Shown: positions 29,928 through 58,880, counted from the first letter of the stretch. The stretch is 64,000 nt of DNA from Negativicutes bacterium (GCA_963665275.2 CAXXIN010000017.1:32001-96000); one strand, 5' to 3'. Notes: generated by a model from the letters alone, not told the origin. Numbers and translations: made by a program.

Positions 29928-29928
29928 C

Positions 29929-38169: not shown

Positions 38170-38181
38170 GTTGCGCCTCCA

Positions 38182-39210: not shown

Positions 39211-39222
39211 GTCAAACCCCCT

Positions 39223-40284: not shown

Positions 40285-40300
40285 CGCTCCTTGTCTTAAC

Positions 40301-40336
40301 AAAATAAAAAATCCTTCAGCCTGCAGCTGAAAGATT
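40301..40336 (-). terminator. Riboswitch-associated intrinsic terminator
   Basis: aatctttcagc-tgcag-gctgaaggatt followed by tttt. Confidence 0.65.
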
Positions 40337-40426
40337 CGTGATGCCCTGAAATTTTCGCATGAAAAATTCGCATGGAAAAATCCGGACAGCCTCCTCCCCA
40401 TCGCTCGCAGGTAATAACGGTGACTC

Positions 40427-41868: not shown

Positions 41869-42822
41869 TTATTCAATCACAGGAATGACCGGTTTATCTT
41901 TGCCGCGTTCCTGATATTTATTTTCGATGGCGTCTTTCACATGTTGCACGTAAATATTCTGGATTCCAGCATTTTCTCCCAGCCCATGTAGATACGCATC
42001 AGCCTTGATGCCTGCTTGGAGCAGAATTGATTTTGCGGAATCTTTTTCATCGCCAGCCATATCATTGTTGGCGTGATCGCCGGCCACCACCATAAACGGC
42101 ATCAGCGTAACTTTCTTGATTTTGTTTTGTTTTAGTTTCTCAACAACATTTTCCAGAGTCGGATATCCTTCCACTGTAAATATAAAATTGTTTTTCAGTC
42201 CGGCGTCTTCCATTTTCATTTGCAGCAACGCATATGCGGCATTAGAAGGATTGACGCCGCCATGTCCCATCCAGACGACGGCCTCATCGCTTTTGGGTTT
42301 GGGCAATTGAGTTTGCACCGCTTGAATCGCTGTCAAGTAATCATCGGGCTTTTCTTCCTGACCCATATAATACAAAATCGGTCGCCCTATTTTCAGTTTA
42401 GCAAAAACATTACTTTGGATATAGGGCTCTGCCGCGCGGCGCACCTTCTCATATTCATCACCGGGCTCAATGTGAAGAGGCTGTATGATAACTTCCGTGA
42501 ACCCGTCTACTTTCAGTTTATCCAGCGCCTGCTTTTCTGTGTCAAACTTTATTCCATCACGGTCCGCCACTTTTTTAATAATAATGCGGGATGTAAAAGC
42601 GCTCCTTACGGCATACTCTGGAAACGCAGCGCGAATCTTTTCTTCCACCGCTTCAATCGTTACTTTACGGGTATCCGCGTATGTAGTACCGAAACTAACC
42701 ACTAAAATAGCCTTTTTCCCTGTCTCTGCTTCAGCCGCATAGGCTTTTTCTCCGCCGGTGATTACGCCAAGAGATAACACAGCTAATAATGCCGTCATGA
42801 TCAACCAGATGTTTGTTTTCAA
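41869..42822 (-). CDS. cbiK: Sirohydrochlorin cobaltochelatase CbiK with N-terminal signal peptide
   Basis: ILVVSFGTTY, AFTSRII, QPLHIEPGDEY, MGHG, TVEGYP, PFMVVAGDHANNDMAG, GLGEN; signal ending AYA-A. Confidence 0.92.
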   Translation of the reverse strand: MKTNIWLIMTALLAVLSLGVITGGEKAYAAEAETGKKAILVVSFGTTYADTRKVTIEAVEEKIRAAFPEYAVRSAFTSRIIIKKVADRDGIKFDTEKQALDKLKVDGFTEVIIQPLHIEPGDEYEKVRRAAEPYIQSNVFAKLKIGRPILYYMGQEEKPDDYLTAIQAVQTQLPKPKSDEAVVWMGHGGVNPSNAAYALLQMKMEDAGLKNNFIFTVEGYPTLENVVEKLKQNKIKKVTLMPFMVVAGDHANNDMAGDEKDSAKSILLQAGIKADAYLHGLGENAGIQNIYVQHVKDAIENKYQERGKDKPVIPVIE

Positions 42823-42976: not shown

Positions 42977-43042
42977 AGAAATCTAACACAGGAGTCGCGT
43001 CAAAATCCCCTCCCCATCGCGCGTGGGTAAAAACGGTGATTG

Positions 43043-43212
43043 TCAGACAGGCAGTTCTCCTGGCTCTGGATCATAGCTCGCCCAAACCTTCCCAAGACTC
43101 TCGTCCCAGTGGCATTTGATGGGTTCACTCCCCAATACAGTGGCGGGACCGCGCCGGCATTACACCGGACTTCCCTATTAAGCCCTCGCGGGCACCTATC
43201 CCGATATGAAAT
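43043..43212 (-). ncRNA. Cobalamin riboswitch 4 (upstream of cbiK)
   Basis: AGGTGCCC..AATAGGGAAGTCCGGTGTAATGCCGG.GCGGTCCCGCCACTGT...AGCCAGGAGAACTGCCT. Confidence 0.95.
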
Positions 43213-43268
43213 TTTCAATTAGTTCAGGATTATATCCATGAGTATTTTGTCACGGTTTCCGTTTTTTG

Positions 43269-44522
43269 TCAACCTAAAGCCTGGCGGCAATAATCACGAA
43301 AATTATTTACGGCAGTGAAGAACTCCCGCATCATAATCACCCCGAAGTAAGGCTTCGTCGTTACGAAAACACCTTCCTTCGGGCCTTTATCGATTCCGCC
43401 GCTCAGGCGAAAAAACAGCAGCATCGGCCAAAGAACGATTGAAGCGCTCCAGCCATATTTCTGCCGCAAATGGTTGGCATCGATCCTCAGCCCGAACAGC
43501 TGCATCATAAAATCATACAACATCATCGACAAACGGCTAAAATTGCGCCGCGCCGTAATCGGGAACTTCCCTGCGTCGATCTGTTGTATATACTCAGGGA
43601 TGTTGAACGTGTTCGCATAAACACACCCGCTTAAGTAGCCAAAAGCTCCGCTGCCAATCCCTGCATATTCCTCGTAATTGACAACATATTCATCAATAAG
43701 CGAAGCATCCCGTGAAAAGCACCAAGCCGTGCTGAGCCGGTACTCTTTCTGCAAAGTTGCCTTAATCATCTCATACAGGACTTGCCCGCGTTCGTCACAA
43801 ATAATCCCCATCGTTTTTTCAATCTTGTTGCGCGTAGTTGACGCCATCATCAAAGGGTAAAACGTCACCTGATCCACTTTCAGTTTTAAGAGAACATCCA
43901 AATCCCGTTGCAACTCCGCCTCTGTTTGCCCCGGAAAATTATAAATCATATCGGCGTTAAGCGTTGTAAAGATTCCTTGCGTCTCTTGAAGTCGCCGGGC
44001 AATTTCGTCGCCGCTACCGTACTTATGGAAACGGTCTGTTGCGCGCAAAATCGCGTCGTCAAAAGACTGAATACCCACAGATAACCGGCTTACCCCCGCC
44101 GCTTTCAGCGCCAGCATTCTATCCCGATCCAAATGATTCGGGTTCGTTTCCACCGATATTTCTTGGATATCGAAGTATTTTTTGACCCATGCAATCGTCG
44201 CTATCAATTCATCCATCAACACCGTCGGAGTTCCGCCGCCGATATACAGCGACTTGAAATTATAGCCGCCCCGCTCGTGATACATCAGAATTTCTTTGCG
44301 CAGTGCGGCAAAGTAACTACGAGCCAATTCTTCTTGAAACTTGACCCGATGAAAAGAACAATATGTACAGAGTTCTTCACAAAAAGGGATGTGTATATAC
44401 AGCATTAACGGAGCACGGGGTTCTGTCGGATGCGGCGGCTCACCAGAGGTATTATCATCAAACTGAATATAGCGGTTCGACATATTGCGTGCAACATAGC
44501 CAACAAAGCGTTCCAAAAACAT
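43269..44522 (-). CDS. HemN-like class C radical SAM enzyme, most similar to menaquinone methyltransferase MenK/MqnK
   Basis: LYIHIPFCEELCTYCSF, GGGTPT, ETNPNHL, KYGSG, DMIYNFP, QVTFYPLM, IDEYVV.YEEY.GIGSG, MREFF..VNNFRD; MenK similarity recalled from memory. Confidence 0.75.
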   Translation of the reverse strand: MFLERFVGYVARNMSNRYIQFDDNTSGEPPHPTEPRAPLMLYIHIPFCEELCTYCSFHRVKFQEELARSYFAALRKEILMYHERGGYNFKSLYIGGGTPTVLMDELIATIAWVKKYFDIQEISVETNPNHLDRDRMLALKAAGVSRLSVGIQSFDDAILRATDRFHKYGSGDEIARRLQETQGIFTTLNADMIYNFPGQTEAELQRDLDVLLKLKVDQVTFYPLMMASTTRNKIEKTMGIICDERGQVLYEMIKATLQKEYRLSTAWCFSRDASLIDEYVVNYEEYAGIGSGAFGYLSGCVYANTFNIPEYIQQIDAGKFPITARRNFSRLSMMLYDFMMQLFGLRIDANHLRQKYGWSASIVLWPMLLFFRLSGGIDKGPKEGVFVTTKPYFGVIMMREFFTAVNNFRDYCRQALG

Positions 44523-44629
44523 AGGCTCCCCACATTTTCTGAAATTCATCAAACAAAATCATTTATATTATACCTCATTGGGGCAAAATCAGTCGAACAC
44601 AGAAATAACCGGCTTGCCCTTGTTCCACG

Positions 44630-44750
44630 CGATATACATTAACCTTGAATCCTGCTTTCGTTAGACAGTTTCCGCCGAATCCTCCTCATCGCCGGCCATA
44701 TCATTTTGGGCATGATCGCCGGCTACCAGCATAAACGGCATTAAGTCAAT
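44630..44750 (-). pseudogene. Degenerate 3' remnant of a second cbiK
   Basis: IDLMPFMLVAGDHAQNDMAGDEEDSA matches CbiK TLMPFMVVAGDHANNDMAGDEKDSA, then frameshift/stop. Confidence 0.82.
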
Positions 44751-44789
44751 TCCAGTTCTGGTTTGCCAAGCTTTCAAAATTGCGCTCCA

Positions 44790-47700
44790 CTACCCGTCCT
44801 CGTTTCCGTCGCTCCGCTCCTCCAGTTCCCCCTCAATCGACAGATACAATTTGCGCAGTTCATCCAATGTATTTTCTTTGGCCTCCCACATACCCCGTTG
44901 TTGCGCTTCCAGCAGTTTTTCGGCAATGCGTCGCAACGCCCATGGATTGACTTCATTCATCCATTCTTGTATCGCAGGATCGAGCGCATACTTTGCAGCC
45001 AGCGTCTCATACATCCAGTTTTCCATCACCAGACTCGTGGCATCCCAATCATAGCAATGCGCCGCTACCGCCGCCAAATCGGCCGCGCCTTTATAACCAT
45101 GCTTTTTCATTCCCTCGATGTATTTTGGATTCATCGCCTCGCCGCGAAAAACCCGCGTGAACTCTTCTTCCAGGCTCCGAACCACGACTCGTCCACGATC
45201 CGAACTATCGCCGCAATATGATCGGGGAGCGCTGCCCCGCAGACTACGCACCGCCGCGACCATACCGCCATGGTAAGCGTTAAAATCATCCGAGTGCAAT
45301 AAATTGACTTCCCGGTTGTCTTCATTCTTTACCGTTACTTCCATCGTCGCCAAGCGTCGACTGAACCGCTCCGGTAAAAAATCTCCCTTGGCCTTCGCCC
45401 CGTAAGCATAAGCACCCCAACGCACGTACACTTTGCCAAGATCATCAACGCTTTCCCAGTTTTTTGCTTCCAATAATGCACCGACCCCGGCTCCATAGCT
45501 GCCAGGCGGACAGCCGAAAATGCGGTAGCCTGCCTGCTCGCGTGCTTCCTTGCCACGTAATCCCGTCTGCTCCAATTCCGTCGTTTCCGCTTCAATATGC
45601 TTGCGCACATAGTTTTCTTCCGCTGATTCAACCTGCGCCGCAGCCATCGCCACCGCCCGATCCATCCACTGCACCGCAAACGGCATGGAGTCTCGGAACA
45701 AGCCACTGATACGGGCCGTCACATCGATACGGGGACGCTTGAGTTCAGCAAGTGGGATCACTTCCAGCCCCGTCACACGTCCGCTGCCTTTCTGCCACAC
45801 TGGCCGAATTCCCAGGAAATATAGAAATTGGGCAATGCACTGCCCCCGGCTGCGCATATTGGCCCCGCTCCAGAGAATGACCCCGATGCTTTCCGGGTAA
45901 TGTCCTTCTTCGGCAACAAACCGTTCGATGAGCAAATCGCCCAATTGTTTGCCGCATTCCCAGGCCACCGACGACGGCAATGTTCGAGGGTCGACGCCGT
46001 AAAAGTTGCGTCCGGTCGGCAAAATATCGGCCATGCCGCTTGTTGGCGCACCCGCCGGTCCCGGTTCCACAAACCGCCCGCTCAAAGCGGCAAGGGAGTT
46101 GTCCATTTCTTGCGCCGTCAAGGCCAGATTTCGTTGCAACGGCCCGCAGAGATATTCCAACACCTGTCGCAATGCCGACAACTTTTCCGTTGCCGCGTTC
46201 TGCAGCCATTCGATTTCGCATTGGAGTGCGGGCCAGGTGTTCGCCAACTGAAATTCCGTTTCCACTAGTCGCAGCACAAGGCTTCGACAGTCCTCGCGAA
46301 CCTCGTCCAGCACAGCCCCGTAAGTCTTTGCTGTTTCGGTTATCCGCTCGCCCTGGCGATCCTGCAATTCTTCGTAACCATATCCTTTAAGTGCCGCGAC
46401 AGAAGTGAACAGCGACGGAATCTCCCCGTTTTGCAGTCGTGTCATCGCCAGCAGATATTCCACCAGCGAGTCCCCTATTGGAGCATGTCCGAGGATATGC
46501 AATCCAACGCGGATTTGCATATTCTTCAGATCGCTGACATAGGCATGCAGCCGTTCCAGATAGCTCTCGATATTCTCGCCGCCCTCCGGCGGGTTCACTG
46601 TATCATTCAGATTGGCGGCTGTAGCTGCCGCGAGAATTTGCACTGCGGTTTGATCCAATTTTTCCGGTTGGTTCAGTTTATAGTGCCAATACTCATCCAC
46701 CAACCGCTCCACATCCACCAGTTCATCATAAACTCCCGCATGGCTCATGGGCGGCGTCTGGTGACCGATGAGGCAGGCCGCGCCACGTCTTTTGGCCTGC
46801 ATCCCTTCGCCGACGATGGTGATCAGATACGGATAAATATTAGGCAGATCACCGAGCGCCAATTCCGGGTAACACTCGCCGGACAACCCCGTCGCTTTCC
46901 CCGGCAGCCACTCCAGCGAGCCATGGGTACCGATATGCATCACCGCGTCAGCACCGAAATCGTCCCGCAGCCATTCATAAAAAGCCAGATAATGGTGCGT
47001 GGGCGCGCAGTCAGGCGAGTGGTATATTTTCGCCGGGTCTTCACCGAATCCGCGCGGCGGCTGTACACTCACCACGATATTCCCCAACCGCATTCCCGGT
47101 ACAAGGAGGGCATCCCCGCGAACAAAAACCTTTCCCGGCGGAATTCCCCAGTCGCGGGTCAATTGCGTGGCCGGTTTGGACGGCAATCGGTCAAACCATT
47201 TCTGATAATCCGCAGCAGCCAAGTGGCCCAAAAATCCACCGGTTGCTTTTTCATCCGAGAACTCCCGATCATTCGTCCCGCACGCAATCAGGGAGTTCAT
47301 CAGGGTTTGGCTATCTTCCGGCAACGTCCCGACATCATAGCCTTCTTGCTGCATCCGGCGCAACAATTCCAGTACACTCGCCGGCGAATCCAACCCTGCC
47401 GCATTACCGATCGCGGCATTGGTCGGCGGGTAATTATGAAAAATAATAGCGACTTTTTTCTCCGAATTTGGCTTATGGCGCAACCTTGCCCATTTTTCAG
47501 CCTTGCGCGCCAACAGATCCATGCGTTCGGCTATCGGTGGATGGTGGATATCACCACCTCCCCGATCTTCTTTGCTGGCAAAAGGAACACTATGAATCAC
47601 GCCATCAAACTCCGGCAAGGAAACACTAAACGACAAATCCAACGGGGTCAACCCCTCAAGATTATCCCGCCACATTGTTTCGCTCTGAAGCAACGTATAG

Positions 47701-48524
47701 GCCTGCAAAATCGGCCGGCCCAAGTGTTGAAAGAAAGAAATGTCGATAGGACGCCCCACTGTCAAGGAAAACTTCAACGTGTTGATTACCACATCAACAA
47801 TCCAGCCGGATTCATCCCGAAAATAAGTTTCGATCGCCGTATCCACACCGGTACTTTGCTGAAGGGGATCAGCCGCCCAATGGCTAAATACGGGAATCAC
47901 GTTCAGCTCACGCTCCACCAGCGTTTTTACCAAAAGACTCTGATGTTTCAGATCCCCCCAGATCCACTCGTCCCGTGGAATCAAAAGACCGACTGTAAGC
48001 CTCCCTGGTTTTAACCACCCCTGCCTCTTATAGTCGTCTAATGATGCTATCCGCTGGTTATCACGCGGGTTTATAATCCCGCTCCAGGGGAGTTCCTGCG
48101 GCTCCCCGGTTTTCTCTTCATGGCCGCAAAAACGTCCGGCCAGCCAGCGCCACAAATTGCGGTAATTATGCTGCCCGCTAAACAACAGATAGCGATTCAC
48201 CGTCTCAATATTGGCCACGGTAAAACCTTGCGACGTATCTTCCTGATCAACACCGGATCCCATCAACAAATAAGGTTTGCCGCTCTCGCGCAGGAGCTTC
48301 AATGATTGTTGAATCAGCTTACTGTCGGAAGAACTTCCCATCCACGAAATCAACGTAACCGTCGCATTCGATAACTGGGTTTTCCATTCATCGCTCCACG
48401 ATGCACGTGGATCCGCCATAACCGCATCCCCTGCCGGAAAATCCGCCGACAGGGCCAGTTGCTTCAGAGTCTTGTCCATCATACTGGCTTGCCGGGTCAA
48501 GTTGGTAATGAATAAGATCCGCAT
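44790..48524 (-). CDS. cobN: Cobaltochelatase large subunit CobN (CobN/ChlH family)
   Basis: LPEFDGVI, HNYPP, GLDSPAS, QPPRGFG, HIGTHGSLEWLPGK, QAKRRG, GLHILG, LPTGRNFY, RPRIDV..RISGLFRD, HGYKGA. Confidence 0.95.
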   Translation of the reverse strand: MRILFITNLTRQASMMDKTLKQLALSADFPAGDAVMADPRASWSDEWKTQLSNATVTLISWMGSSSDSKLIQQSLKLLRESGKPYLLMGSGVDQEDTSQGFTVANIETVNRYLLFSGQHNYRNLWRWLAGRFCGHEEKTGEPQELPWSGIINPRDNQRIASLDDYKRQGWLKPGRLTVGLLIPRDEWIWGDLKHQSLLVKTLVERELNVIPVFSHWAADPLQQSTGVDTAIETYFRDESGWIVDVVINTLKFSLTVGRPIDISFFQHLGRPILQAYTLLQSETMWRDNLEGLTPLDLSFSVSLPEFDGVIHSVPFASKEDRGGGDIHHPPIAERMDLLARKAEKWARLRHKPNSEKKVAIIFHNYPPTNAAIGNAAGLDSPASVLELLRRMQQEGYDVGTLPEDSQTLMNSLIACGTNDREFSDEKATGGFLGHLAAADYQKWFDRLPSKPATQLTRDWGIPPGKVFVRGDALLVPGMRLGNIVVSVQPPRGFGEDPAKIYHSPDCAPTHHYLAFYEWLRDDFGADAVMHIGTHGSLEWLPGKATGLSGECYPELALGDLPNIYPYLITIVGEGMQAKRRGAACLIGHQTPPMSHAGVYDELVDVERLVDEYWHYKLNQPEKLDQTAVQILAAATAANLNDTVNPPEGGENIESYLERLHAYVSDLKNMQIRVGLHILGHAPIGDSLVEYLLAMTRLQNGEIPSLFTSVAALKGYGYEELQDRQGERITETAKTYGAVLDEVREDCRSLVLRLVETEFQLANTWPALQCEIEWLQNAATEKLSALRQVLEYLCGPLQRNLALTAQEMDNSLAALSGRFVEPGPAGAPTSGMADILPTGRNFYGVDPRTLPSSVAWECGKQLGDLLIERFVAEEGHYPESIGVILWSGANMRSRGQCIAQFLYFLGIRPVWQKGSGRVTGLEVIPLAELKRPRIDVTARISGLFRDSMPFAVQWMDRAVAMAAAQVESAEENYVRKHIEAETTELEQTGLRGKEAREQAGYRIFGCPPGSYGAGVGALLEAKNWESVDDLGKVYVRWGAYAYGAKAKGDFLPERFSRRLATMEVTVKNEDNREVNLLHSDDFNAYHGGMVAAVRSLRGSAPRSYCGDSSDRGRVVVRSLEEEFTRVFRGEAMNPKYIEGMKKHGYKGAADLAAVAAHCYDWDATSLVMENWMYETLAAKYALDPAIQEWMNEVNPWALRRIAEKLLEAQQRGMWEAKENTLDELRKLYLSIEGELEERSDGNEDG

Positions 48525-48526
48525 AA

Positions 48527-48829
48527 TCAGCGCTCCTCCACCGAATCCGTGTAGTCACTTTCATAACGAACAAAATGCTCAAAATCATCCCGCCGGGGAA
48601 AACTAATCGCGGCAGACGGGCACTTTGGCACACATCCGCTGCATAACACCACGCATTCATATGGATGGGAAACGATTGGCTTGCCTGTTGATTCATCCAA
48701 GGTATAAACCCTTTTCGGGCAGAATTCGAAACATACTTTGCAGCCGATGCACCGAGTAGCATCAAGCGTCGGGTACCATTCAATCTGATCCCGGTCTACC
48801 AACAACGTCCGTTTTCGACGCACCTGCAT
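48527..48829 (-). CDS. 2[4Fe-4S] ferredoxin
   Basis: CIGCKVCFEFCP and CVVLCSGCVPKCP. Confidence 0.88.
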   Translation of the reverse strand: MQVRRKRTLLVDRDQIEWYPTLDATRCIGCKVCFEFCPKRVYTLDESTGKPIVSHPYECVVLCSGCVPKCPSAAISFPRRDDFEHFVRYESDYTDSVEER

Positions 48830-48842
48830 TTTTTCACCCGCC

Positions 48843-50279
48843 TTACAATCCAATCTTTTTCCATACATGAATCCGATAGGCCCCGATGATCGCACCGCTA
48901 TCCAGCTGAAGCGGCGCTTCCATCCCCACCATGTGCGTAGCATTGGCGGCAACCGCAACACAGGGACCTTCTGTCGGCAAAAAATCCACGATATCCAGTT
49001 CCGGCGTCGACAACATCACCATGCCATGGATGGATGTGTCTTTGGTTCGAATGTTTCGCCCGATCGCTACCGCCAACTGATTGCCCGTGCTTTTGAATTC
49101 TTCCACCATGCCGCCCAGCTTGCGACGTTTCAGCAAACTTCCCTCATGATCAAATAGAAATACACTGTTGCTCTGGGGATGCTCCACCGGTGTCGGCAAT
49201 TGCCAATTCGCCCTGTTATACGTATTCCCTGTGGAAAACGCCACATATTCGCCGACATGCTGGACATGCAGTCCGGTAGCATTCAGAAACACCCCCTGGA
49301 TTTTCTGTGGGGCACTCAGCGTCCGCGTCCACAACAGTTTTCCTGTAGCAACCAGCAAAAACGCGCGCCCATCAGCCGAGACTCCGCCGAGATATTTGCC
49401 ATCATCGGAAATCGTCGGCCCAAAACGCATGTTCGTGCGGTCATAGGGGGGAACTGTCGCCAGCGCTTGACTCCAACGAAACTCGCCCGTCTTGGCGTCA
49501 AAAACATATACATTATCTTTATATTTTCGTTCCGGACCCGGCGTATAGTCCGAAGTTCCAAAGGTCAGCGTCGTTCCTGCCTCATCCACATCGCACCAGC
49601 TGACCCACACGTCCAGATTGTGGTCGCGAGGAAACTGCATCACAACCCCTTTGTCATCGAACTTATAGATCCGGGCAAAATACTCCGTCTTTCCGCTGGA
49701 AAAGCGGATGGAGCGCAACGCCACCGCATAGGCATTGCCGACTCCATCCACAGTGATGGACATTATGCCAGGAAACGTCTTTTGGCGAATATCCACGCCC
49801 AGCTCATCGACACTGGACTTGCGCCAGAGCTCGGAACCAGTAGTCGCGTCAATACAGATCACGGCGCCCTGTTGACTGTTTTCACCGACATAAATTAGGC
49901 GTGCGTCCTTGGAAAATTCCAATGCGCTGATTTTCCCCATGCCGATCTTACGACTCCATTGCCGGTTTCCCTGCAAGTCCAGCAGCATCACTTCGCCGCT
50001 CTCTGTACCTACAACCAGACGCGAACCCTCCGGTGAGAGCCGGATCAGTCCGGGAGTCGATCCCATCTGCTTGAACCCGCGAATTTCTACCTTGCCCAGC
50101 GGAATCTCGCTGATTTTTTCATACCGCCCCACGCGGCTGACATTTTTTTTGGCAGTCGCCACCCCTTCAATCGGTTGTAATTCAGGAAAAATATGCAGCG
50201 CCAGCCCCACCAGACTGCCAAGAAACAACAGGAATATCCCAGCTGTAATTATTTTACTTTTTATCTCACTCACAACCAC
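48843..50279 (-). CDS. Membrane-anchored PQQ/WD40-like beta-propeller protein
   Basis: N-terminal TM; repeated D..TG...W blades (IDATTGSELW, FDAKTGEFRW, VATGKLLW). Confidence 0.78.
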   Translation of the reverse strand: MVVSEIKSKIITAGIFLLFLGSLVGLALHIFPELQPIEGVATAKKNVSRVGRYEKISEIPLGKVEIRGFKQMGSTPGLIRLSPEGSRLVVGTESGEVMLLDLQGNRQWSRKIGMGKISALEFSKDARLIYVGENSQQGAVICIDATTGSELWRKSSVDELGVDIRQKTFPGIMSITVDGVGNAYAVALRSIRFSSGKTEYFARIYKFDDKGVVMQFPRDHNLDVWVSWCDVDEAGTTLTFGTSDYTPGPERKYKDNVYVFDAKTGEFRWSQALATVPPYDRTNMRFGPTISDDGKYLGGVSADGRAFLLVATGKLLWTRTLSAPQKIQGVFLNATGLHVQHVGEYVAFSTGNTYNRANWQLPTPVEHPQSNSVFLFDHEGSLLKRRKLGGMVEEFKSTGNQLAVAIGRNIRTKDTSIHGMVMLSTPELDIVDFLPTEGPCVAVAANATHMVGMEAPLQLDSGAIIGAYRIHVWKKIGL

Positions 50280-51157
50280 ACCGCCATGAAGTCATATACG
50301 CCGCGCAACTCAGGGAAATAAGCAAGTCCGTTAAACTGCAATACATATAGCATTTTCAAGGTGGTGCCTGTCGCAATTCCGGCGAATACCATCAGGCAAG
50401 CAAGCCTTTCCACAACGGGCCACGCAGTCAACCCTGCCCGCTGCCCACAGCGACCAAATCCCCGGCTTTCCACCGACAATGCCAATGTCGCAGCCCGACG
50501 CAAGGCACGCGCCAAAATTGGGAACAAAACATAAAATGCAGTCCGCACCCATCGCAACGGAGAGAGCGTCCGCATCGGTTCAAATCCGCGCAGACGTTGC
50601 GCCGTAAGCACAATCGCCGTTTCTTCAAAAATCACCGGCAGAAACCGCAAGCTGGTAATCAGCATAAAGGCAATGGGATAGGGCATCTTCCAATGCAAAA
50701 AACACTGCAACAATTGCCGGGGATCGGTGGTCCAGCAAATGAGCAACCCGCAGGCAAGCATGATTCCTGAGCGCAGGGCTTGCACCGCCCCATGTTCCAG
50801 TCCTTCACGATAAACAAAGATACCCCCTGTCGCCTCACCGATCCAGGGCACGGTCGGGGATACCAGGCAGGCAATCATCGTACGCGGTTCCTGATTATAA
50901 AAAAGAGCCTGACTGAGCATCGCACCCCAAATTCCAACGAGCAAAAAGATAATCAGGATCTTCCAACGCTCAACCGAAGAGCGGGCAACAACATGAAAGC
51001 CCAACGACAACAAAAATACCAAGAATAATGGTCGCGGCCCTTCCAGGCCCACAGCAAATAGCACAATCGCCGCCAACAATACGAGCTTTGTTCGAACGTC
51101 CAAGTTGTGAACCGGCGTATCAGCAGGCGTTGCTTCCCAGACTTGTCTGTTGTACAT
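50270..51157 (-). CDS. ECF transporter T component
   Basis: LDVRTK, LRFLP, AQRLRG, SVESRGFG. Confidence 0.9.
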   Translation of the reverse strand: MYNRQVWEATPADTPVHNLDVRTKLVLLAAIVLFAVGLEGPRPLFLVFLLSLGFHVVARSSVERWKILIIFLLVGIWGAMLSQALFYNQEPRTMIACLVSPTVPWIGEATGGIFVYREGLEHGAVQALRSGIMLACGLLICWTTDPRQLLQCFLHWKMPYPIAFMLITSLRFLPVIFEETAIVLTAQRLRGFEPMRTLSPLRWVRTAFYVLFPILARALRRAATLALSVESRGFGRCGQRAGLTAWPVVERLACLMVFAGIATGTTLKMLYVLQFNGLAYFPELRGVYDFMAVWL

Positions 51158-52811
51158 ACTGGACCACCTCCTCCACGCAGAGGGCGCATCCGCCGTATAA
51201 TTCACGGGAAACCCGCAGCGCAGCCGGAGCCCGCAGCCCTGCCAGACGCAAAACCTCTTCGCTGGAAAACACGTCTCGCGGTGGAGCGTCAGCAACAATT
51301 CGTCCAGCCGTCATGACCACCACTCTCTCGGCGTAGCGGGCCGCGACCTCCGTATCATGCGTGCAGAAGATGACAGTCCCGCCTGAGGCGGTATATTCCT
51401 GCAACAGCGCAATAATATCGTCAATGTGTCCCAAATCCTGTCCGGTCGTCGGTTCGTCCAGCAACATGATATCCGGCTTATACGCCAATAGCGCAGCAAT
51501 AGCCACCCGTACCCGCTGCCCTTGGCTTAGCGCCAACGGGAATCGTTCTCCCATGCCGGCCAGACCTATTTTTGCCAGTAATAAACGCCATTCGCCATGA
51601 TCGGGCGCATTTTGGCCGCCATGATGCAAGCCGAATGTGATTTCTTTCTCTACAGTAGAATTAAACAGCATTAAATCCGGATTCTGCATAACCATTCCGA
51701 CCCGCCGGTCCAGCGACTTGACTACCTGTCCATCCACTATCACTTTTCCAGCCTGTGCCTGCTGCAACCCGCAAATATGATGCAACAAGGTTGACTTGCC
51801 TGCTCCATTGTTGCCCATAAGTGCGACAAATTGCCCGCAGGGGACAGTCAAATGGATGCCGTCAAGAATTTTTCGTCCCCGAGGATCGTATCGGAAGTCC
51901 AATCCTTGGATCTCTATCGCGATATTTTCCGTCGGAACCGGAATCGTTTTCACAGGCACTCGCACAGCCACCTCACACTTTGGATAAGCCTTGCGAATAT
52001 CGTGAACCGCATCCTCAACCGAAGCGCTCTGCGACAAAACACCCAGTCCGTGGCAAATATGGACTGGCTGAGGAATTCTCAGGCCCATATCCAGAAATAC
52101 TCCGGGGCTGCGGAACGCCTCCTGTCGCTTTCCCTGCCAAGAAATCCCTCCATTTTCCATTACCAGCACATGTTTGCAAAGAGGCATCACCTCATGCAAA
52201 CGATGTTCAACAATAATCAGGGTTATTCCAAGCTCCTGATTCAGTTTCTGCAAAACCTGCAACAATTCCATTGCACCGCGTGGGTCCATCTGGCTGATTG
52301 GCTCGTCCAACGCCAACATCTTCGGCCGGACGGCGAGTACTGCCGCCAACGCCAATCGTTGCCGCTCCCCGCCGGACAAGGCGTGCACACTGCCCTGCTC
52401 TCGCCCCGACAAGCCAACCCAACCCAGTGTTTCCTCCACCCGCTCTCGAATTGCCTGCCGTTCCATGCCCATGTTTTCCAGCGCGAATCCGACTTCATCC
52501 GCAACCGTTGTCGAAAATATCTGATCGTCGGGGTTTTGGAACATCAAGCCCACCGTACGGCTCAATTCTGCTACGGAGGATTGCAACGAATCCACCCCGT
52601 CCACCAGTACGCTTCCGCGTAGCGTTCCGCTGATTTCGTGGGGAATCAGCCCATTAAATGCTTTTAACAATGTACTCTTCCCACAACCGGTCGGCCCGGT
52701 GCACAAAATAAAATCGCCTGCTTCGATTGTCAAATTAATATTGGCAATGCTGGGAATTGATCGAGTCTTATAAGTAAAAAACAGGTTTTTGCATTCCACA
52801 ATCCCGGTCAT
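51120..52811 (-). CDS. ECF transporter fused double ATPase
   Basis: GPTGCGKST and GNNGAGKST, FQNPDDQIF, LSGGERQR, LDEPTTGQD. Confidence 0.92.
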   Translation of the reverse strand: MTGIVECKNLFFTYKTRSIPSIANINLTIEAGDFILCTGPTGCGKSTLLKAFNGLIPHEISGTLRGSVLVDGVDSLQSSVAELSRTVGLMFQNPDDQIFSTTVADEVGFALENMGMERQAIRERVEETLGWVGLSGREQGSVHALSGGERQRLALAAVLAVRPKMLALDEPISQMDPRGAMELLQVLQKLNQELGITLIIVEHRLHEVMPLCKHVLVMENGGISWQGKRQEAFRSPGVFLDMGLRIPQPVHICHGLGVLSQSASVEDAVHDIRKAYPKCEVAVRVPVKTIPVPTENIAIEIQGLDFRYDPRGRKILDGIHLTVPCGQFVALMGNNGAGKSTLLHHICGLQQAQAGKVIVDGQVVKSLDRRVGMVMQNPDLMLFNSTVEKEITFGLHHGGQNAPDHGEWRLLLAKIGLAGMGERFPLALSQGQRVRVAIAALLAYKPDIMLLDEPTTGQDLGHIDDIIALLQEYTASGGTVIFCTHDTEVAARYAERVVVMTAGRIVADAPPRDVFSSEEVLRLAGLRAPAALRVSRELYGGCALCVEEVVQYVQQTSLGSNAC

Positions 52812-52814
52812 TGT

Positions 52815-54485
52815 TCAATCACTCCCCACGTCGGCCAAGCGACTGCCGAGCAATAACCCGCACCCCGCTCCAATCATCGTATAGAAAAAACCGTTGACCG
52901 CCATCACCATGTAGATATACCAATCCGCATAATAAAGTCGATATAGTACAGCCATCCCCTGCATTGTGACATAGGTGGCTGCTGTGTCCGCCAGTGCGCA
53001 GGCCAGCGCCAGTATAACCATCCTGCGAAGTGTAAAGCGTATTGGTTCCGCCTCCTCCATCCGGGCCGATGTAAAACCGGTGGCAGCCAACGCCAATTCA
53101 AGCAGAAAAGCATTCACACCATAAGACAGCAATACAATCGGCGACATGTGTCCAAACGCGACCATGCCGAGCAGCATACGGATCGCCGCCATCAATGTAA
53201 CTACGCCGTGAAGCGGGATCAGGGTAATCAACGCACCGGTCAGCATATACAGCATGACGCCGCTAAACATCCCTGTAAGCAAGAAGCCGAACGGGCCGAG
53301 AAAAATATGAAAAAAATCATTCAATAACGTTGAAGGAACGTTCACCACCGCAAAAGCGCAGGTTCCAAACAAGGCGATCGTAATCAGGCGACGCGTTTTC
53401 ATGCCGGCCAGTACGAACGGCAATCGCTTGGCAATCAACACCAGAAACGCCAGAAGCATCAGCAAGGCAATTCCGAGGGTAAACAAGCCCCGCATGTTTT
53501 TCTTGACTACCACGATAGGCGTCTCTCGGGACCACACTTGAGTCTCGCCATCCTCAACCGTGACCCGCAGCAAATATTTTCCCTCGGTCAATAGCGATTC
53601 ATCGGCATAAATCGGCAATAACAACCGTTGCCGCGCCTCGCCGGTCAAAGCGACAAACGCTGTCAATCGCTCCTGATTTGCCGCCATCGCGCCTGCCCCG
53701 TCGTTATCGGAATTACTACCGGGAGTGTATAAGCCGGGGACTTTTCGATGAGTGTTTTTATCGAGAAGTTCCGCTTCCACTATCACCAGTTTTTGCTGCC
53801 CTGCAGGATTGCTGAAATCCAGTCCCATATGGCTTACTGGATGGATGGCCTCTATTTCCAGATTCGAAACGCCCTTGCCGCGCAGTATGTTTTTGAAATA
53901 GTCCAGCGAACGGTCGCGCAGCACCAAAGCACTGCCATTTTGTTTCTCATCACGTTTTCCATCTTTGTCCAGCGGCAAAACAATTTGTTCAAAAACCGGA
54001 GCTTGTCGAGGTGAAACACCTGAAGCCGGAGGTGCTACCGTCAAGGCAATACTCTTTGACATTCCATCAACAACAAGCCGAATCGGCTGTGCGCCAATTA
54101 CCATATTTTCATCGACAGTCAGCGTCAGAAAATCAAACCACTGACCATAGCCGCCAGCTAGTACAACAGTTTTTGTAATCGCCTGCCCACTCTGCCGAGA
54201 TGCCATCTGCCAGTTTTCCTGTCGCTCCGACAAAGTAATCCCTGCAGGAAAAAGGATTTCGACTGGAACGATGCGTTCTTGCGAGGCGGTGTTCTCAATG
54301 CTGAAAACCGCATGAATGGTTTCCCCCGGCGCCGCTGTCATTTGGTTCCGCCCCAGTGAATAGGGAATCTCCAGCGTTGCGTTGATCCCTGGCGCTTCTG
54401 CGGCCAGGCAAGGCAATGTTCCCCATAAAACTAGGCCTGCCACATATAGCAGGTTGAAATGTTTCAGCCATTGGTAAATCCGCAT
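52815..54485 (-). CDS. Putative ECF substrate-specificity component fused to a large extracytoplasmic domain
   Basis: Signal peptide, ~320-aa beta-rich soluble region, then ~7 TM helices; lies directly before ecfA/ecfT. Confidence 0.65.
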   Translation of the reverse strand: MRIYQWLKHFNLLYVAGLVLWGTLPCLAAEAPGINATLEIPYSLGRNQMTAAPGETIHAVFSIENTASQERIVPVEILFPAGITLSERQENWQMASRQSGQAITKTVVLAGGYGQWFDFLTLTVDENMVIGAQPIRLVVDGMSKSIALTVAPPASGVSPRQAPVFEQIVLPLDKDGKRDEKQNGSALVLRDRSLDYFKNILRGKGVSNLEIEAIHPVSHMGLDFSNPAGQQKLVIVEAELLDKNTHRKVPGLYTPGSNSDNDGAGAMAANQERLTAFVALTGEARQRLLLPIYADESLLTEGKYLLRVTVEDGETQVWSRETPIVVVKKNMRGLFTLGIALLMLLAFLVLIAKRLPFVLAGMKTRRLITIALFGTCAFAVVNVPSTLLNDFFHIFLGPFGFLLTGMFSGVMLYMLTGALITLIPLHGVVTLMAAIRMLLGMVAFGHMSPIVLLSYGVNAFLLELALAATGFTSARMEEAEPIRFTLRRMVILALACALADTAATYVTMQGMAVLYRLYYADWYIYMVMAVNGFFYTMIGAGCGLLLGSRLADVGSD

Positions 54486-54498
54486 GACTTCTCCCCTA

Positions 54499-55188
54499 CT
54501 ATCGCAAATCAAAGACCACAGGCAATGTAGCCCAGGCTGCCACCGGCGCCCCTTTTTGCAACGCCGGGCTAAAGCGCCAGGACCGAACTGTGCGTTGCGC
54601 CGCCGCATCCAGTTCCCCATAACCTGAACTACTCACTACCCGGACGTCTTCCACCCGTCCTTCCGTATTGACTAGTATCTGAAGTTTGACCGTTCCTTCC
54701 CAGCCTTTAACCCGCGCATTTTCCGGATACTCCGGTCGCCCGCCCTCAACGATTCGCGGCCCCCGTGTCGGTCCGGATCCGCTTCCTGTGCCCGGTCCCA
54801 TTCCCGTTCCTTGCCCAGCGCCGGTTCCGCCACCCGTCCCGCCGCCGCTCCCCCCCGAGCCGCCTGCGCCGCCGCGGCCTCCCGCCGGTGCAGCCGGAGT
54901 GGAAGTTGCTGCCGATCGAAGATCCGTCACTCCAGCGAAGCTATTATGGGATTGTGGCGCAGTTTGATTATCCGCTGGCCTTGGCGCGCCCATTGGCGTA
55001 CCGCCTCCCCCGGCAGCTCCATCCACCGGCGAAAGCAATTCGGCCATTGTCACTTCCACATAGATCGGCTGGCGTGACTGAACAGCTTCCCAACTCCAGA
55101 ACGCGCCCGCCGCCGCAACCAAAATGACATGAAGAAGCAGCGAGCCGACCAGTGCCGCCCGCCACCGCTTTTGATCGTCCATCATCAA
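54499..55188 (-). CDS. tonB: Energy transducer TonB
   Basis: TM SLLLH, Gly-rich linker, PEYPENAR..GWEGTV..SSG..LD.AA..WRFSPA. Confidence 0.92.
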   Translation of the reverse strand: MMMDDQKRWRAALVGSLLLHVILVAAAGAFWSWEAVQSRQPIYVEVTMAELLSPVDGAAGGGGTPMGAPRPADNQTAPQSHNSFAGVTDLRSAATSTPAAPAGGRGGAGGSGGSGGGTGGGTGAGQGTGMGPGTGSGSGPTRGPRIVEGGRPEYPENARVKGWEGTVKLQILVNTEGRVEDVRVVSSSGYGELDAAAQRTVRSWRFSPALQKGAPVAAWATLPVVFDLR

Positions 55189-55586
55189 CCTTTTGGGTCC
55201 ACGGCAAGCGAAATTTTTCCCGCACCGGCGCGTTTCACGGCGTCAATGACTTCCACCACTTTGCCGTGATGGGAGTCTTTATCTGCCTTGATGAAAACCA
55301 GCGGGTGGCTGTGAACTTTCGCCGCCACAGTTGCCGCCAGTTCACCGACCGAAACCTGTTGATCGCCCACCGCGATTTTCCCGTCCTTGTTTACCAGAAC
55401 CGTGATGTGTTCCGGCGGCTGTGGCGTACCGCTTGCTGCCTGTGGCGGCGTGATGTTGAAGCCGGGGTGGGCCGCCAAAAAGGTCGTAGACATCATGAAA
55501 AAAATCAGCAGCAGCATCATGACATCGACCATCGGTGTCATATCAACATGTACCGGCGCATGGGGTGATTCCCTTCGATAACGCAT
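55185..55586 (-). CDS. exbD: Biopolymer transporter ExbD
   Basis: DMTPMVDVMMLLLIFFM, IKADK, VVEVIDAVKRAG. Confidence 0.92.
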   Translation of the reverse strand: MRYRRESPHAPVHVDMTPMVDVMMLLLIFFMMSTTFLAAHPGFNITPPQAASGTPQPPEHITVLVNKDGKIAVGDQQVSVGELAATVAAKVHSHPLVFIKADKDSHHGKVVEVIDAVKRAGAGKISLAVDPKG

Positions 55587-55603
55587 GGAAAGCTCTCCTT
55601 CCT

Positions 55604-56194
55604 CTAGGCGCCGGCGCGTCGGACGATCTCGCCGACGCAGCCTTCGGTCCAGTGCAGCAGCCGTTCTACCCGGTTGCGAAAATGATTGTTGGCAATGATG
55701 CACGGGATAGCGACCAATAGCCCACCCGCTGTATTGTACAGGGCTTCGGAAATCCCTTCCGCCAGCATTTGCGGATTTCCGAGGCCAGTCATTGATGCGG
55801 CCTGAAAAGTTTTGATCATGCCCAGCACTGTGCCAAGAAGTCCGAGCAACGGCGCCACCGTGGCAGCTGTGGTGAGCATATACAAGTTGCGCTCCAGCAC
55901 GGGGATTTCCGCCCGAACGGCATCATCCACCGCGTTCTGGCGAGCTTCCCTTTCGGCCGGAGGAATCACGGCAGCTGCTTCCCACATTTTAGCGAACACC
56001 GCGTTCTCCGACCCACGATACAGAACTCCGGCGCTGCCTGACGCCGATTCTTTCAGCCAATCCCGGAAGGTCTTGGCGGCCGCATCGGCTGATCGGTAAA
56101 ATAATCCTCGTTCGATAATGACCGCGCAGGCCACCAGAGAACAGGCCATGATAACGACAATGACGTAGCCGCCTTTGGCGATGATTTCTAACAT
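55604..56194 (-). CDS. exbB: ExbB/MotA/TolQ proton channel
   Basis: APLLGLLGTVLGMI..F, GISEALYNTAGGL.VAIP. Confidence 0.93.
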   Translation of the reverse strand: MLEIIAKGGYVIVVIMACSLVACAVIIERGLFYRSADAAAKTFRDWLKESASGSAGVLYRGSENAVFAKMWEAAAVIPPAEREARQNAVDDAVRAEIPVLERNLYMLTTAATVAPLLGLLGTVLGMIKTFQAASMTGLGNPQMLAEGISEALYNTAGGLLVAIPCIIANNHFRNRVERLLHWTEGCVGEIVRRAGA

Positions 56195-56203
56195 GAGCTC
56201 CTC

Positions 56204-58259
56204 CTAAAAATTCTGGGTCAGTTTCAGGTAAAATGCCCGTTCCGGCGTAATATATCCGCCATCATTCGTATAATCAATGCGGTTGAAAAGATTTTCGACG
56301 CGTAGCGTCAATTGCGTATTTTTTGTAACATCATAATTGAGCATCAGGTTCGCTTGCAGGGATGGGGGTATCGCACCTGAGCTGACGGTAGCTGGAGCGA
56401 TCGGAGACAACAACTGTCGCATCCCGACATAGGTCGCCGCCAGACTTCCCGACCATTTCCCCTTGCGGTAATTCAGACCGGCATTCAATTGCAAGTTTGC
56501 CTCCGACTGTTCCCATTCCGCAGCGTTCTGTGTCTTCGCTTCCGGGTTGCCATACATAGCACCCAGGGAAAACCCCCAGCCGCCTTTTAGCGACCGTGCA
56601 TATTCAACTTCCATGCCCAGGTTGCGGAATTGGGCGTTTTGCGATTGGTAATTTTTCACGGTCGAGGTTCCCAAATTCACCCATTGGTGCAGGTTGGAAA
56701 AATCCAGCTTATAGACGGCCACTTTTAAAGAATCCGATTCGCGGATTTTTTTCCAGCCGATTTCATATGTCCAGCCCGTATCCGGTTCCAAACTCGGATT
56801 AGGAATTGTTAATGTTGAACTGGAAAACATCGCCGTCCAATTTGGCGCCCGGAATGATTTGCCCACATTCAGATATAACGACTGATCTCGGTTTAGTTTG
56901 TGCAGTATTTGAAACTGCGGACTGACTTGCCCATAATTATCCAAATTATTTTGTTGCGCGATGATATCCTGTCGCAATCCAAGGATGAAATTCGTCTTGG
57001 CCGACAGCGGATGATCGATTTGTCCGAAGAACGAAAACAGGTCGCGCTGTTTCAGTGGTATTGCAGTAGTACTGCCTAAAAACACATTGGTTGAATAGGT
57101 GTCTTTTTGCCAGGACAATCCGGCGGTGTAGGATCCAAACCCGGTTTTCCAGGTGCTTTGACTATCCGTGCCATACGTCTGCATATATTGCCTTGAATTC
57201 GATGCAGTCAACTTGGCTCCATTTGTGCTTAAACTGGCGATCGGGGCTGTGTTGGCTTGGTTTCGCACCAGCCCGTTGTAGTAAAGTTTATGTGTCCAGG
57301 AGCCGGAGCGGATTTGCAACGAAGTGATATCGTTGGCGTCCTGTTGCCACATGGTTCCCAGGCTATCGTCCTGTTTCCAGGCCTTGCCCGCCAATCCACC
57401 TGTGGACGCAACCAGTTTTGACAATTGAAAGGTATCGTCGATATGTCGATAATTCCACGTAATTGCATCTGTAATCGCCCATGTAAAGTCAAAGGTTTGC
57501 TTCGACTCATAATCGAAGTTCGTATAATAAGGCGCATAAGCAGTGGTCGTGGTCGTTGTCTTGCCTTTTGTTGTCGTCGTCGTAGAAGTGCTGTAGCCCG
57601 GTCGCGTCGTTTGCATCGCTCCCATGTTTCCGGTATAGTCGCGATTATAGGATACATAGAACTTCCCTGCCTGCAGTGAAAGGCTTTCCCGATTCGTGCC
57701 AAAGCTGCCGACTTCTACGGAAGCACTGCTTTGTCCAGATTTCTTCGTAATGACATTGATAACTCCGCCCATGGCCGCGCTACCATATAACGTCGATGCG
57801 GCTCCTTTGACAATCTCAATACGCTCTATGCTGTCGGTGGGTATATTCTGCAGTTCATACTTTCCATTCCAATTGATGGGGATTCCGTTAAGCAACACTA
57901 ATGCACTTAGATCTTTCCCCATGCCCCGGATGGAAACACCGCCGGTCATACCGCTGTAAAGCGATCCACGCGCGCCATAGGTATCAATCGTGACCCCAGT
58001 GGAAAACTTCAGCGCTTCCAGAACATTGGTCGCGCCGGTCTCCTTTATTTTTTCGCGGGTCAGCACCTCCACGGCGGCCGGCGTCGTCAGTTCTTTTGAT
58101 TCACGCCGCAAAGCAGTCACCAACACCGGATCAAAACTGTATTCCTGATTTTCCTCCGCCATCGCCAGGCCCGATGTCACGAGGCACAATACTCCCTGCC
58201 ATCAACCCCGCTACAGTTCTCCGCGACCAATTCCGGGCCCACTTCTTGCTCAGCTTCAT
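56204..58259 (-). CDS. TonB-dependent receptor (frameshift in signal-peptide region ~58195)
   Basis: VLVTA TonB box, plug IERIEIVKGAASTLYGS.AMGGVINVITK, NPSLEPD, VENLFN, C-terminal F; start MKLSKK at 58259 with AGGAG RBS. Confidence 0.92.
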
Positions 58260-58418: not shown

Positions 58419-58571
58419 TATAAAAAAAGAATAGCTCCCTGGTGTGGGAGCTATTCCGGACAGCTGGCTGTCTTTTGATAAAAAATCCCGGCAAAATATG
58501 CCGGGAAGAAGTTCAACACAGGAGCTGCGCCAAAATCCCCTCCCCATCGCGCGTGGGTAAAACGGTGATTG

Positions 58572-58742
58572 TCAGACAGGCAGTTCTCCTGGCTCTGGAT
58601 CATAGCTCGCCCAAACCTTCCCAAGATTTTTCATCCCAGTGGCATTTGATGGGTTTGCTCCCCAATACAGTGGCGGGACCGCGCCGGCATTACAACGGAC
58701 TTCCCTATTAAGCCCCTCAGGGCACCTATCCCGATATGAAAT
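58572..58742 (-). ncRNA. Cobalamin riboswitch 5 (upstream of TonB receptor-ECF-cobN operon)
   Basis: Near-identical to riboswitch 4, including the downstream tandem terminators at ~58422-58507. Confidence 0.95.
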
Positions 58743-58880
58743 TGTCAAAAGAATTTATACTACGTACTGAATATTATCACAGAGGTTTTGGAGTGTCAAT
58801 CGCATTTTCACCTGCGCAAAACATAGTACACACTTAGGCAGGAAAGTTAATCAATAAAGGAATAGTAATTCCTTTATTGA

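Follow-up and report, generated by a model that had tools for sequence, protein, structure and literature searches.

A cobalamin-riboswitch operon of a Negativicutes bacterium encodes a candidate ECF-type importer with an ectodomain-bearing S-component and a membrane-anchored propeller

We analysed a stretch of 64,000 nucleotides from a Negativicutes bacterium (GCA_963665275.2 CAXXIN010000017.1:32001-96000; hereafter the window, with positions counted from its first letter), and in it an operon at 44790-58259 that combines genes for TonB-dependent uptake, an energy-coupling factor (ECF) transporter and a CobN chelatase. Ten minus-strand open reading frames (ORFs) abut or overlap there downstream of a cobalamin riboswitch at 58562-58744, the fifth of five cobalamin riboswitches in the window, every one of which lies on the minus strand. 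The order is TonB-dependent receptor (TBDR), ExbB, ExbD, TonB, a protein in which a predicted S-component is fused to an extracytoplasmic domain (hereafter the S-fusion), a fused EcfA-A' ATPase, EcfT, a beta-propeller, a ferredoxin and CobN (Table 1). Gene identities were assigned by Pfam and NCBIfam profile matches with curated cut-offs. With the likeliest starts, the successive gene junctions measure 9, ~17, -4, 13, 3, -38, -10, 13 and 2 nt (from coordinates and translations), and a scan for terminator-like sites found no strong one between the ten genes. ORFs, family matches and junction distances together confirm the initial annotation of ten abutting or overlapping genes behind riboswitch 5. 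Ahead of the first gene, the hairpin and T-run that follow the aptamer are probably the riboswitch expression platform.

As assembled, the TBDR gene carries one extra base at ~58190, inside the signal peptide, which is split over two frames. This base is absent from the contigs of all four public runs compared (three studies), and the receptors of relatives continue in one frame across the region matching 58190. Because the public-run contigs omit the base, we regard the frameshift as an assembly indel and the gene as intact from the ATG at 58259; with the indel discounted, the operon start previously placed at 58259 is correct. A second one-base mismatch to the public contigs lies at 58419.

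The centre of the system is the S-fusion, a 601-aa ORF whose likeliest start, the ATG at 54485, gives a protein of 556 aa. By sequence it matches no family in Pfam or NCBIfam, no S-component family at cut-off, and nothing in the PDB at E <= 10. To place the membrane domain by fold, its AlphaFold2 model was compared with 48,161 solved chains in a search independent of Foldseek. Ranks 1-15 were all ECF S-components or BtuM (Z 15.1 to 8.8), whereas unrelated chains scored Z 7.3 or less. The best match was YkoE (5edl; Z 15.1, rmsd 2.9, 173 residues aligned), which Foldseek also ranked first; other values were 12.7 for RibU, 11.6 for NikM, 10.5 for BioY, 10.1 for FolT, 9.9 for CbiM, 9.7 for ThiT, 9.1 for PanT and 8.8 for BtuM. 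In the predicted structure, the membrane domain thus has the S-component fold that the initial annotation had presumed. That annotation had also given the protein a signal peptide and an extracytoplasmic domain of ~320 aa; we find a predicted signal peptide followed by ~317 such residues, and the fusion is conserved in the family. S-components start in the cytoplasm, and a periplasmic domain placed on one needs one more membrane crossing; in the model, the extra linker helix solves this problem of topology.

Conservation runs through both halves of the protein. In the S-domain, H393, E463, C496, D500, Y515, R516, W522, Y523 and C542 are kept in at least 90% of sequences, as are 25 polar or aromatic positions of the ectodomain. 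Its second domain holds a dense invariant polar set (R190, D191, D195, K204, E212, H215, N226 and D242), which, judged from the alignment, is consistent with a binding or docking surface. With its 556 aa, signal peptide, two-domain ectodomain and extra helix, the S-fusion is unlike the small (~20 kDa) membrane-only S-component, and because its size and architecture depart from that type we treat it as a variant S-component.

The double ATPase passes the curated models for both of its halves, and EcfT, whose start is supported by relatives' alignments that begin at about residue 43-47, clears its Pfam cut-off and scores 67 bits against TIGR02454, under the equivalog cut-off of 111.8. The propeller begins with a transmembrane anchor that contains no lipobox cysteine, and a hydrophobic N-terminal anchor was present in 20 of 20 propeller homologues examined. 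That a membrane-anchored propeller belongs to the system, as had been proposed, is therefore strengthened: it is an obligate partner of the conserved gene set described below, with its anchor conserved.

Among the closest known systems is YkoEDC, a group I dedicated ECF transporter, which likewise has an S gene ahead of those for a fused double ATPase and a T protein, in the order ykoE-D-C. The window's S-component differs in adding a signal peptide, ~317 periplasmic residues and an extra helix, and its operon in having the propeller as a fixed fourth gene. NikK and NikL of NikMNQO are a precedent for extra periplasmic ECF components; they are separate proteins of metal transporters, presumably unrelated in sequence to the fused ectodomain. 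Cytoplasmic fusions are reported in a survey of this fold from 2024, which mentions neither 'periplasmic' nor 'extracellular domain' (PMC11109136). A search of the open literature, with subscription-only papers outside its scope, found no paper on an ECF S-component that has an extracytoplasmic domain or is paired with a propeller. The ectodomain-bearing S-component and its propeller, as modelled, would be a new, undescribed variant of ECF importer.

The same fold survey bears on whether the S-fusion is an importer at all, since receptors and MreD adopt the S-component fold as well (PMC11109136), and the protein could be a sensor or scaffold like MreD and the 5TMR receptors. A feature that speaks for this, and against transport, lies in helix 1, where an AxxxA motif serves EcfT docking in S-components (PMC11109136): the window's helix 1 reads TIALFGT(C/A)AFAVV, with a stripe of small residues at A371, T375 and A379 (i, i+4) and no strict AxxxA. 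Against it, the gene for the S-fusion is in every case immediately followed by those for a dedicated EcfAA' and EcfT, the protein lacks any cytoplasmic signalling domain, and in the fold search every S-component ranks above MreD and the other non-transporter chains. We consider a non-transport role very improbable.

The conservation of the operon was surveyed in 151 genomes sampled evenly across the class, which are related to one another; intersections were counted from two lists. The S-fusion, EcfAA', EcfT and the propeller form a conserved unit (hereafter the cassette) present in 41 of 151 Negativicutes genomes and 21 of 67 genera. Its order is kept in seven of seven genome loci (with the propeller placed upstream in L019) and in 22 of the 23 sufficiently long genome_contigs loci; L020, L021 and L043 are too short to judge, L025 is without an EcfAA' match, and some loci share genomes, so that these counts are not independent. 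The initial annotation had treated the ten genes as one coupled unit. The functional unit is instead the four-gene cassette, around which receptor, chelatases and ferredoxin vary; a receptor with ExbBD-TonB heads the operon in the window's genus. A word-indexed search gave 107 homologues of the S-fusion, the named ones all 'hypothetical' and from Sporomusa, Methylomusa and other Negativicutes, and Pfam domains were found only on the weakest match, a partial or chimeric fragment covering 35% of the query. In a profile search of 1.84 billion representatives, 465 reached E <= 0.001 and 206 reached E <= 1e-30, and one relative belongs to the actinomycete lineage Candidatus Oleimmundimicrobium; there are also hints of relatives in archaea. 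In L017, an ABC-2 ATPase and permease pair (L017:5567-7149) directly follows the propeller and resembles the ABC-2 exporter of the window at 33770-36310.

Table 1 Features of the operon and its neighbourhood in the window.
Feature	Position	Strand	Support
Promoter-like site (TTGACA, 17 nt, TAATAT; TG ahead of second hexamer)	58771..58799	-	consensus match only
Cobalamin riboswitch aptamer, RF00174	58562..58744	-	101.2 bits vs gathering score 31.5; full model 1-189
Terminator-like hairpin and T-run	58486..58506	-	near-identical hairpin after riboswitch 4 at 42955-42976
Second terminator-like hairpin, 12 pairs, before first gene	58428..58457	-
TBDR, ~684 aa if read intact	56204..58259	-	Plug 90.9 bits, barrel 117.1 bits
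ExbB	55604..56194	-	PF01618, 106.9 bits
ExbD, likely start M40 of ORF 55185-55703	55185..55586	-	PF02472, 108.6 bits; start from translation
TonB: N-terminal anchor, Gly/Pro-rich spacer, TonB_C domain	54499..55188	-	TonB_C 91.9 bits
S-fusion residues 1-28, signal peptide	54402..54485	-	read from sequence; N-terminal hydrophobic stretch kept in family
S-fusion residues 29-345, predicted periplasmic ectodomain, two beta-sandwich domains, ~317 aa	53451..54401	-	model pLDDT 80.6
S-fusion residues 346-556, linker transmembrane helix and six-helix S-component domain	52815..53450	-	AlphaFold2 model pLDDT 88.5
Fused EcfA-EcfA' ATPase, two ABC domains in one chain	51120..52811	-	TIGR04520 401.8 bits (cut-off 315); TIGR04521 400.6 bits (cut-off 330)
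EcfT (CbiQ family), likely start M48 of ORF	50270..51157	-	PF02361 100.6 bits (cut-off 25)
Beta-propeller (PQQ_2/BamB-like), N-terminal membrane anchor, fourth cassette member	48843..50279	-	PQQ_2 49.3 bits
2x[4Fe-4S] ferredoxin, 100 aa, likely start 48829	48527..48829	-	4Fe-4S dicluster families
CobN, class I (ATP-dependent) chelatase large subunit	44790..48524	-	TIGR02257 991.7 bits (cut-off 822.05)
CbiK-like fragment, 31 residues, in 238-nt gap after CobN	44664..44756	-	PF06180 positions 198-228, 37.9 bits
HemN-family radical SAM gene	43269..44552	-	NF006385 471.4 bits
CbiK with signal peptide (predicted periplasmic), behind riboswitch 4 (43033-43214)	41869..42822	-	riboswitch, family matches and sequence
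318-aa protein, signal peptide, C-terminal aromatic end, riboswitch 4 operon	40894..41850	-	read from sequence; no Pfam/NCBIfam match
Radical SAM/SPASM gene, ChlI and ChlD behind riboswitch 40417-40600	36487..40401	-	riboswitch and family matches

Regulation and genome context indicate what the importer may carry. A cobalamin riboswitch lies upstream of the cassette operon in 11 of the 14 type-1 loci scanned (as distinct from the divergent type 2 loci described below), and directly before the S-fusion gene in five loci, that of Sporomusa ovata among them. The host assembly (3.97 Mb, 20 contigs, 92.6% complete) contains seven cobalamin riboswitches above threshold and one Plug-domain gene, the receptor of the operon itself. 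At that completeness, the whole assembly contains no match to the BtuF family PF01497 and weak FecCD (PF01032) matches only, at 29.7 and 22.2 bits, so that the earlier statement that BtuF and BtuCD genes are missing holds for the assembly as well as the operon. Compared with the enterobacterial BtuB-BtuF-BtuCD route, the operon shares a TonB-dependent outer step, an ATP-driven inner step and a cobalamin riboswitch, and differs in having an ECF-type inner transporter, a receptor far below the BtuB cut-offs, and neither BtuF nor a more than weak BtuC match in the assembly. We read the operon as a cobalamin-repressed, two-membrane uptake route for corrinoids (cobamides, cobinamide or related B12-type tetrapyrroles) to which CobN is an add-on, and put the probability of this reading at about one half.

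Import of cobalt, free or chelator-bound, to feed cobalt chelatases would account for some of the same observations. The seven-helix, N-terminus-out topology is like that of NikM and CbiM, which align from model residue 1 (Z 11.6 and 9.9), and when ten distant members of the S-fusion family were compared with Pfam and NCBIfam, the sole result was a sub-threshold match to PF09819 'ABC_cobalt' (17.9 bits); a separate weak link to PF09819 had a score of 0.87. CbiM and NikM bind the metal by their N-terminus, which would be impossible for an S-domain internal to its protein, and a receptor with its own TonB together with two large periplasmic proteins exceeds the needs of a free ion. Control by a B12 riboswitch is typical of cobalt importers (PMC7689651). 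Two CbiM genes, however, are present elsewhere in the assembly, and one belongs to a cbiL-cbiK-cbiMNQO operon under its own riboswitch, whose CbiK is without a signal peptide; cobalt therefore has its own B12-controlled importer. Because of this separate importer, and because the cassette is the only visible inner-membrane candidate for corrinoids, a corrinoid cargo is preferred, and cobalt import appears quite unlikely.

Several observations weigh against the corrinoid reading. We infer the cargo from regulation and context only. The gene at the head of the operon is a TBDR, and curated scores do not support its identity as BtuB: it reaches 133.8 bits against TIGR01779 (cut-off 599.7) and 101.2 bits against NF007926 (cut-off 836), siderophore and hemin receptor models score it about equal to the BtuB model, and its matches in the PDB are to the plug domain only (CirA 68.7 bits, PhuR 57.5, BtuB 53) and uninformative on the ligand. 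ECF-CbrT and BtuM are proteins of S-component fold linked to B12 uptake (PMC5997447, PMC6072759), and the S-domain is closer to YkoE (Z 15.1) than to either of these small, membrane-only proteins without ectodomain or propeller partner (BtuM Z 8.8, CbrT Z 6.2), both of which match it less well than vitamin S-components do as a rule. The ectodomain has generic fold matches, to Ig-, MG-, CARDB- and RhoGDI-like sandwiches at Z 9-11.7. The commonest neighbours of the cassette are cobalt chelatases, CbiK (directly upstream in Sporomusa loci) and CobN, which also fits a cobalt importer, and NikA-type binding-protein transporters stand beside it in L013 and L058. CbiD, finally, occurs in 129 of 151 genomes and in 38 of the 41 cassette carriers; because it is near-universal in the class, producer status cannot separate cobalt from corrinoid cargo.

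Three further observations belong to these subjects. None of the ectodomain fold matches singles out a known fold that binds corrinoids, heme or metals: YcnI (Z 10.4) and CARDB (Z 9.2) are level with many unrelated chains. The transporters in L013 and L058 are NikA/Opp-type ABC importers (substrate-binding protein family 5; L013:1143-6903, L058:1946-3616), the former with an FmdE-like zinc-finger protein, and are possibly a metal supply line. In the window's own assembly (G000), CbiD was not found, but the region syntenic with the cbi cluster of the relative G007 is the extreme end of contig C4, and because the expected site falls at a contig end the absence of CbiD cannot be concluded.

On the corrinoid reading, transport would proceed as follows. 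At low B12 the operon would be read through, and the receptor, powered by its own ExbB-ExbD-TonB, would bring a corrinoid into the periplasm, as the riboswitch and the lack of alternatives suggest. Conservation and topology point to a capture of this cargo at the inner membrane by the ectodomain sandwiches and the anchored propeller, which would pass it to the S-domain and so take the role that belongs to BtuF in the BtuCD system. The EcfAA'-T motor would then, going by its family membership, topple the S-domain and release the cargo inside. Of the two-membrane relay put forward in the initial annotation, the path from receptor to ectodomain and propeller to ECF transporter is thus still the natural reading, given the S-component fold, the propeller and the missing BtuF; delivery to CobN proved not to be obligate.

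Two comparisons bear on the capture step. BtuG, the partner of BtuB in Bacteroides, is reportedly a beta-propeller. It forms a surface lipoprotein lid on an outer-membrane receptor, whereas the window's propeller is transmembrane-anchored and linked to inner-membrane ECF genes, and the two are likened by description only; what BtuG illustrates is an accessory B12-capturing protein that acts with a transporter (PMC10404256). The neighbouring operon encodes a CbiK with a signal peptide, which could itself act as a periplasmic carrier, and for this reason the replacement of a periplasmic binding protein by the fusion is offered as a hypothesis. CbiK of Desulfovibrio is reportedly located in the periplasm too, and the likeness is that of a periplasmic CbiK beside B12 transport genes. 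A B12-element in Desulfovibrio precedes cbiK-cbiL and btuCDF (PMC545781).

Whether transporter and chelatase belong to one pathway depends on what CobN is and where it occurs. The window's CobN is the single copy in the assembly, passes the curated model, and shows no signal peptide or anchor at its N-terminus. ChlI (38182-39210) and ChlD (36487-38169), on the minus strand in an adjacent riboswitch operon, are the AAA+ partner subunits for it, a likeness to CobNST and ChlHID from which this set differs in having CobN in a transport operon. Against solved structures it scores 766.8 bits with CobN 7c6o, 723.9 with CobN 9uk9, 517 with ChlH and 395.5 with HmuS 9d26, the last match covering mainly the C-terminal third. 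The dechelatase-type role once considered is not supported, since by these scores the protein is nearest to true cobaltochelatase CobN (767 and 724 bits) and not to HmuS (395 bits).

These comparisons also bear on a harvest of heme or iron, as by the hmu genes of Bacteroidota, with CobN as the dechelatase. HmuS, a CobN homologue that strips iron from heme, is encoded beside a TBDR (PMC12583661), and in the window a HemN/ChuW-related radical SAM gene follows CobN. The control element, however, is a cobalamin riboswitch, the window's CobN differs from HmuS in score and in location, lacking signal peptide and anchor, and the presence of ChlI and ChlD indicates an ATP-driven chelatase. We give heme harvest hardly any weight.

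A stronger case can be made for transporter and chelatase as a single pathway, in which the cargo would be a tetrapyrrole or corrinoid that has no metal or the wrong one, to be metalated or demetalated in the cytoplasm by CobN-ChlI-ChlD with electrons from the ferredoxin. CobN and/or ChlI/ChlD adjoin the cassette in distant loci (L015, L016, L030, L032, L034, L036, L038 and L041); the order in L015 is CobN-rSAM-ChlI-ChlD-TBDR-cassette (rSAM, radical SAM), and in L016 two CobN genes lie directly upstream of the cassette. CobN occurs in 53 of the 151 genomes, 30 of which also carry the cassette and 23 of which do not, with 11 genomes carrying the cassette only; its frequency is thus 30/41 in cassette genomes against 23/110 in those without, in a comparison that, between related genomes, is not independent. 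The same counts speak against the coupling, for 11 of 41 cassette genomes are without CobN, and nine of the 11 are at least 96% complete. In G007 and G010, which belong to the window's genus and are 100% complete, a riboswitch-TBDR-ExbBD-TonB-cassette operon stops after the propeller, with no CobN anywhere in the genome; in G007 a NikA-type ABC importer continues the operon. Because these same-genus genomes carry the operon without CobN, transport is independent of it, and delivery to CobN, which had been proposed as the purpose of the transporter, is not obligate. The ferredoxin, likewise named earlier as part of the functional system, is present only in the same-genus loci L025 and L036 among the 33 loci compared. 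The CobN gene of Sporomusa is under a riboswitch of its own, and an unrelated gene lies between it and the cassette. A natural supply of metal-free corrinoids is not documented in the literature examined. We therefore judge an obligatory single pathway unlikely, and return to uptake of corrinoids with CobN and ferredoxin as a lineage-specific extension that would be dispensable for transport.

What the extension might do can be sketched from the B12 pathway. The product of the cobaltochelatase reaction on hydrogenobyrinic acid a,c-diamide is the point at which two B12 routes converge. Class I cobaltochelatase uses this diamide as its substrate (PMC7689651). The host follows the route of early insertion by CbiK, and for that reason CobN is supernumerary. 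CobN and the ChlI/ChlD of the neighbouring operon would form an ATP-driven cobaltochelatase, and our most specific guess is that it lets a CbiK-route cell finish metal-free late corrinoids that other organisms have made. Electrons for the subsequent reduction of Co(II) to Co(I), for which Salmonella uses flavodoxin and CobA, would come from the ferredoxin.

A second, paralogous kind of system adds to the evidence on coupling. Several genomes encode a divergent S-fusion of ~630 aa, 29-35% identical to the window's, in loci that we call type 2. Their order, ExbB-ExbD-TonB-propeller-S-fusion-EcfAA'-EcfT-CobN-TBDR-ChlD-ChlI, is complete in L058 and likewise seen in L019, where ChlI and ChlD matches follow the TBDR; it recurs in L059 without a receptor match and in L060 as far as the locus extends, and L056 and L057 have a related arrangement. 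No cobalamin riboswitch was found in L019 or in 112 kb of L055-L060. The type 2 CobN passes the NCBIfam model NF004646, and up to four CobN paralogues per genome are clustered near cassettes. Judged by sequence, the chelatase gene inside the type 2 transporter operon is the best evidence that a transporter-chelatase coupling has substance, and the occurrence of receptor, transporter and chelatase in paralogous sets suggests that chelatases are matched to cargo. A group II intron domain (RF00029, 67.9 bits; L057:11109-11183) lies next to one type 2 locus.

The genes around the operon extend the tetrapyrrole theme. The CbiK-like fragment after CobN (G000:C17:76664-76756 in the assembly) hints, by its profile match, that a CbiK gene once stood here. 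As a promoter-like site lies at 44567-44596, before the HemN-family gene, and no terminator-like site follows CobN, this gene is possibly an eleventh member of the operon or possibly has its own promoter. The 318-aa protein encoded with the predicted periplasmic CbiK is probably an outer-membrane beta-barrel, going by its signal peptide and aromatic end, and a homologue 48% identical to it stands beside the TonB genes of L019. Upstream of the operon, a DUF1847 match at 59041-59574 (minus strand) is incomplete (profile positions 67-133), and L014 has the full gene.

Further along the minus strand, the operon of the radical SAM gene, ChlI and ChlD ends in an ABC-2 type exporter (ATPase, permease and HlyD-like adaptor) at 33770-36310. 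Two cobalamin riboswitches 570 nt apart (32435-32620 and 33193-33375) lie downstream of these ABC-2/HlyD genes and upstream of B12-dependent mutase genes. The methylmalonyl-CoA mutase at 28803-31854 is split into four consecutive ORF pieces, which may have arisen by single-base assembly indels like that at 58190. At 22078-25475, a nitrogenase-like trio, composed of a NifH/CfbC-like gene (its scores of 382 and 376 bits fall slightly short of the two cut-offs) and two NifD/NifE/BchB-like genes, lies in this tetrapyrrole-rich neighbourhood. Elsewhere in the assembly, a riboswitch precedes two adjacent ORFs (G000:C5:55031-57207), the first of which weakly matches the CobT family through its initial 60 residues; we presume a resemblance to the ArsAB pair of Sporomusa, which activates phenolic bases.

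Taken together, these results invite a broader proposal, which we regard as doubtful in this full form: that Negativicutes carry modular tetrapyrrole salvage machines, each built from a TBDR, a capture pair of ectodomain and propeller, an ECF motor and CobN-ChlI-ChlD, with the B12-switched type 1 completing metal-free or mis-metalated corrinoids by late cobalt insertion and the riboswitch-less type 2 serving another tetrapyrrole or metal. If true, type 1 machines would bridge the 'aerobic' and 'anaerobic' B12 routes between species, using the corrinoids of neighbours. The recurrent linkage to CobN is in any case a testable lead on why CbiK-bearing anaerobes keep one to four CobN paralogues, a question that the HmuS paper explicitly asks (PMC12583661). 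ECF S subunits have been described as small, membrane-only and in need of no soluble binding protein, and the S-fusion family breaks this picture; its design, with the propeller, may reflect the adaptation of an importer of Gram-positive type by bacteria that have an outer membrane. For Sporomusa-like bacteria, producers and consumers of cobamides in sludge, sediments and guts, the cassette is a candidate for the missing inner-membrane B12 importer.

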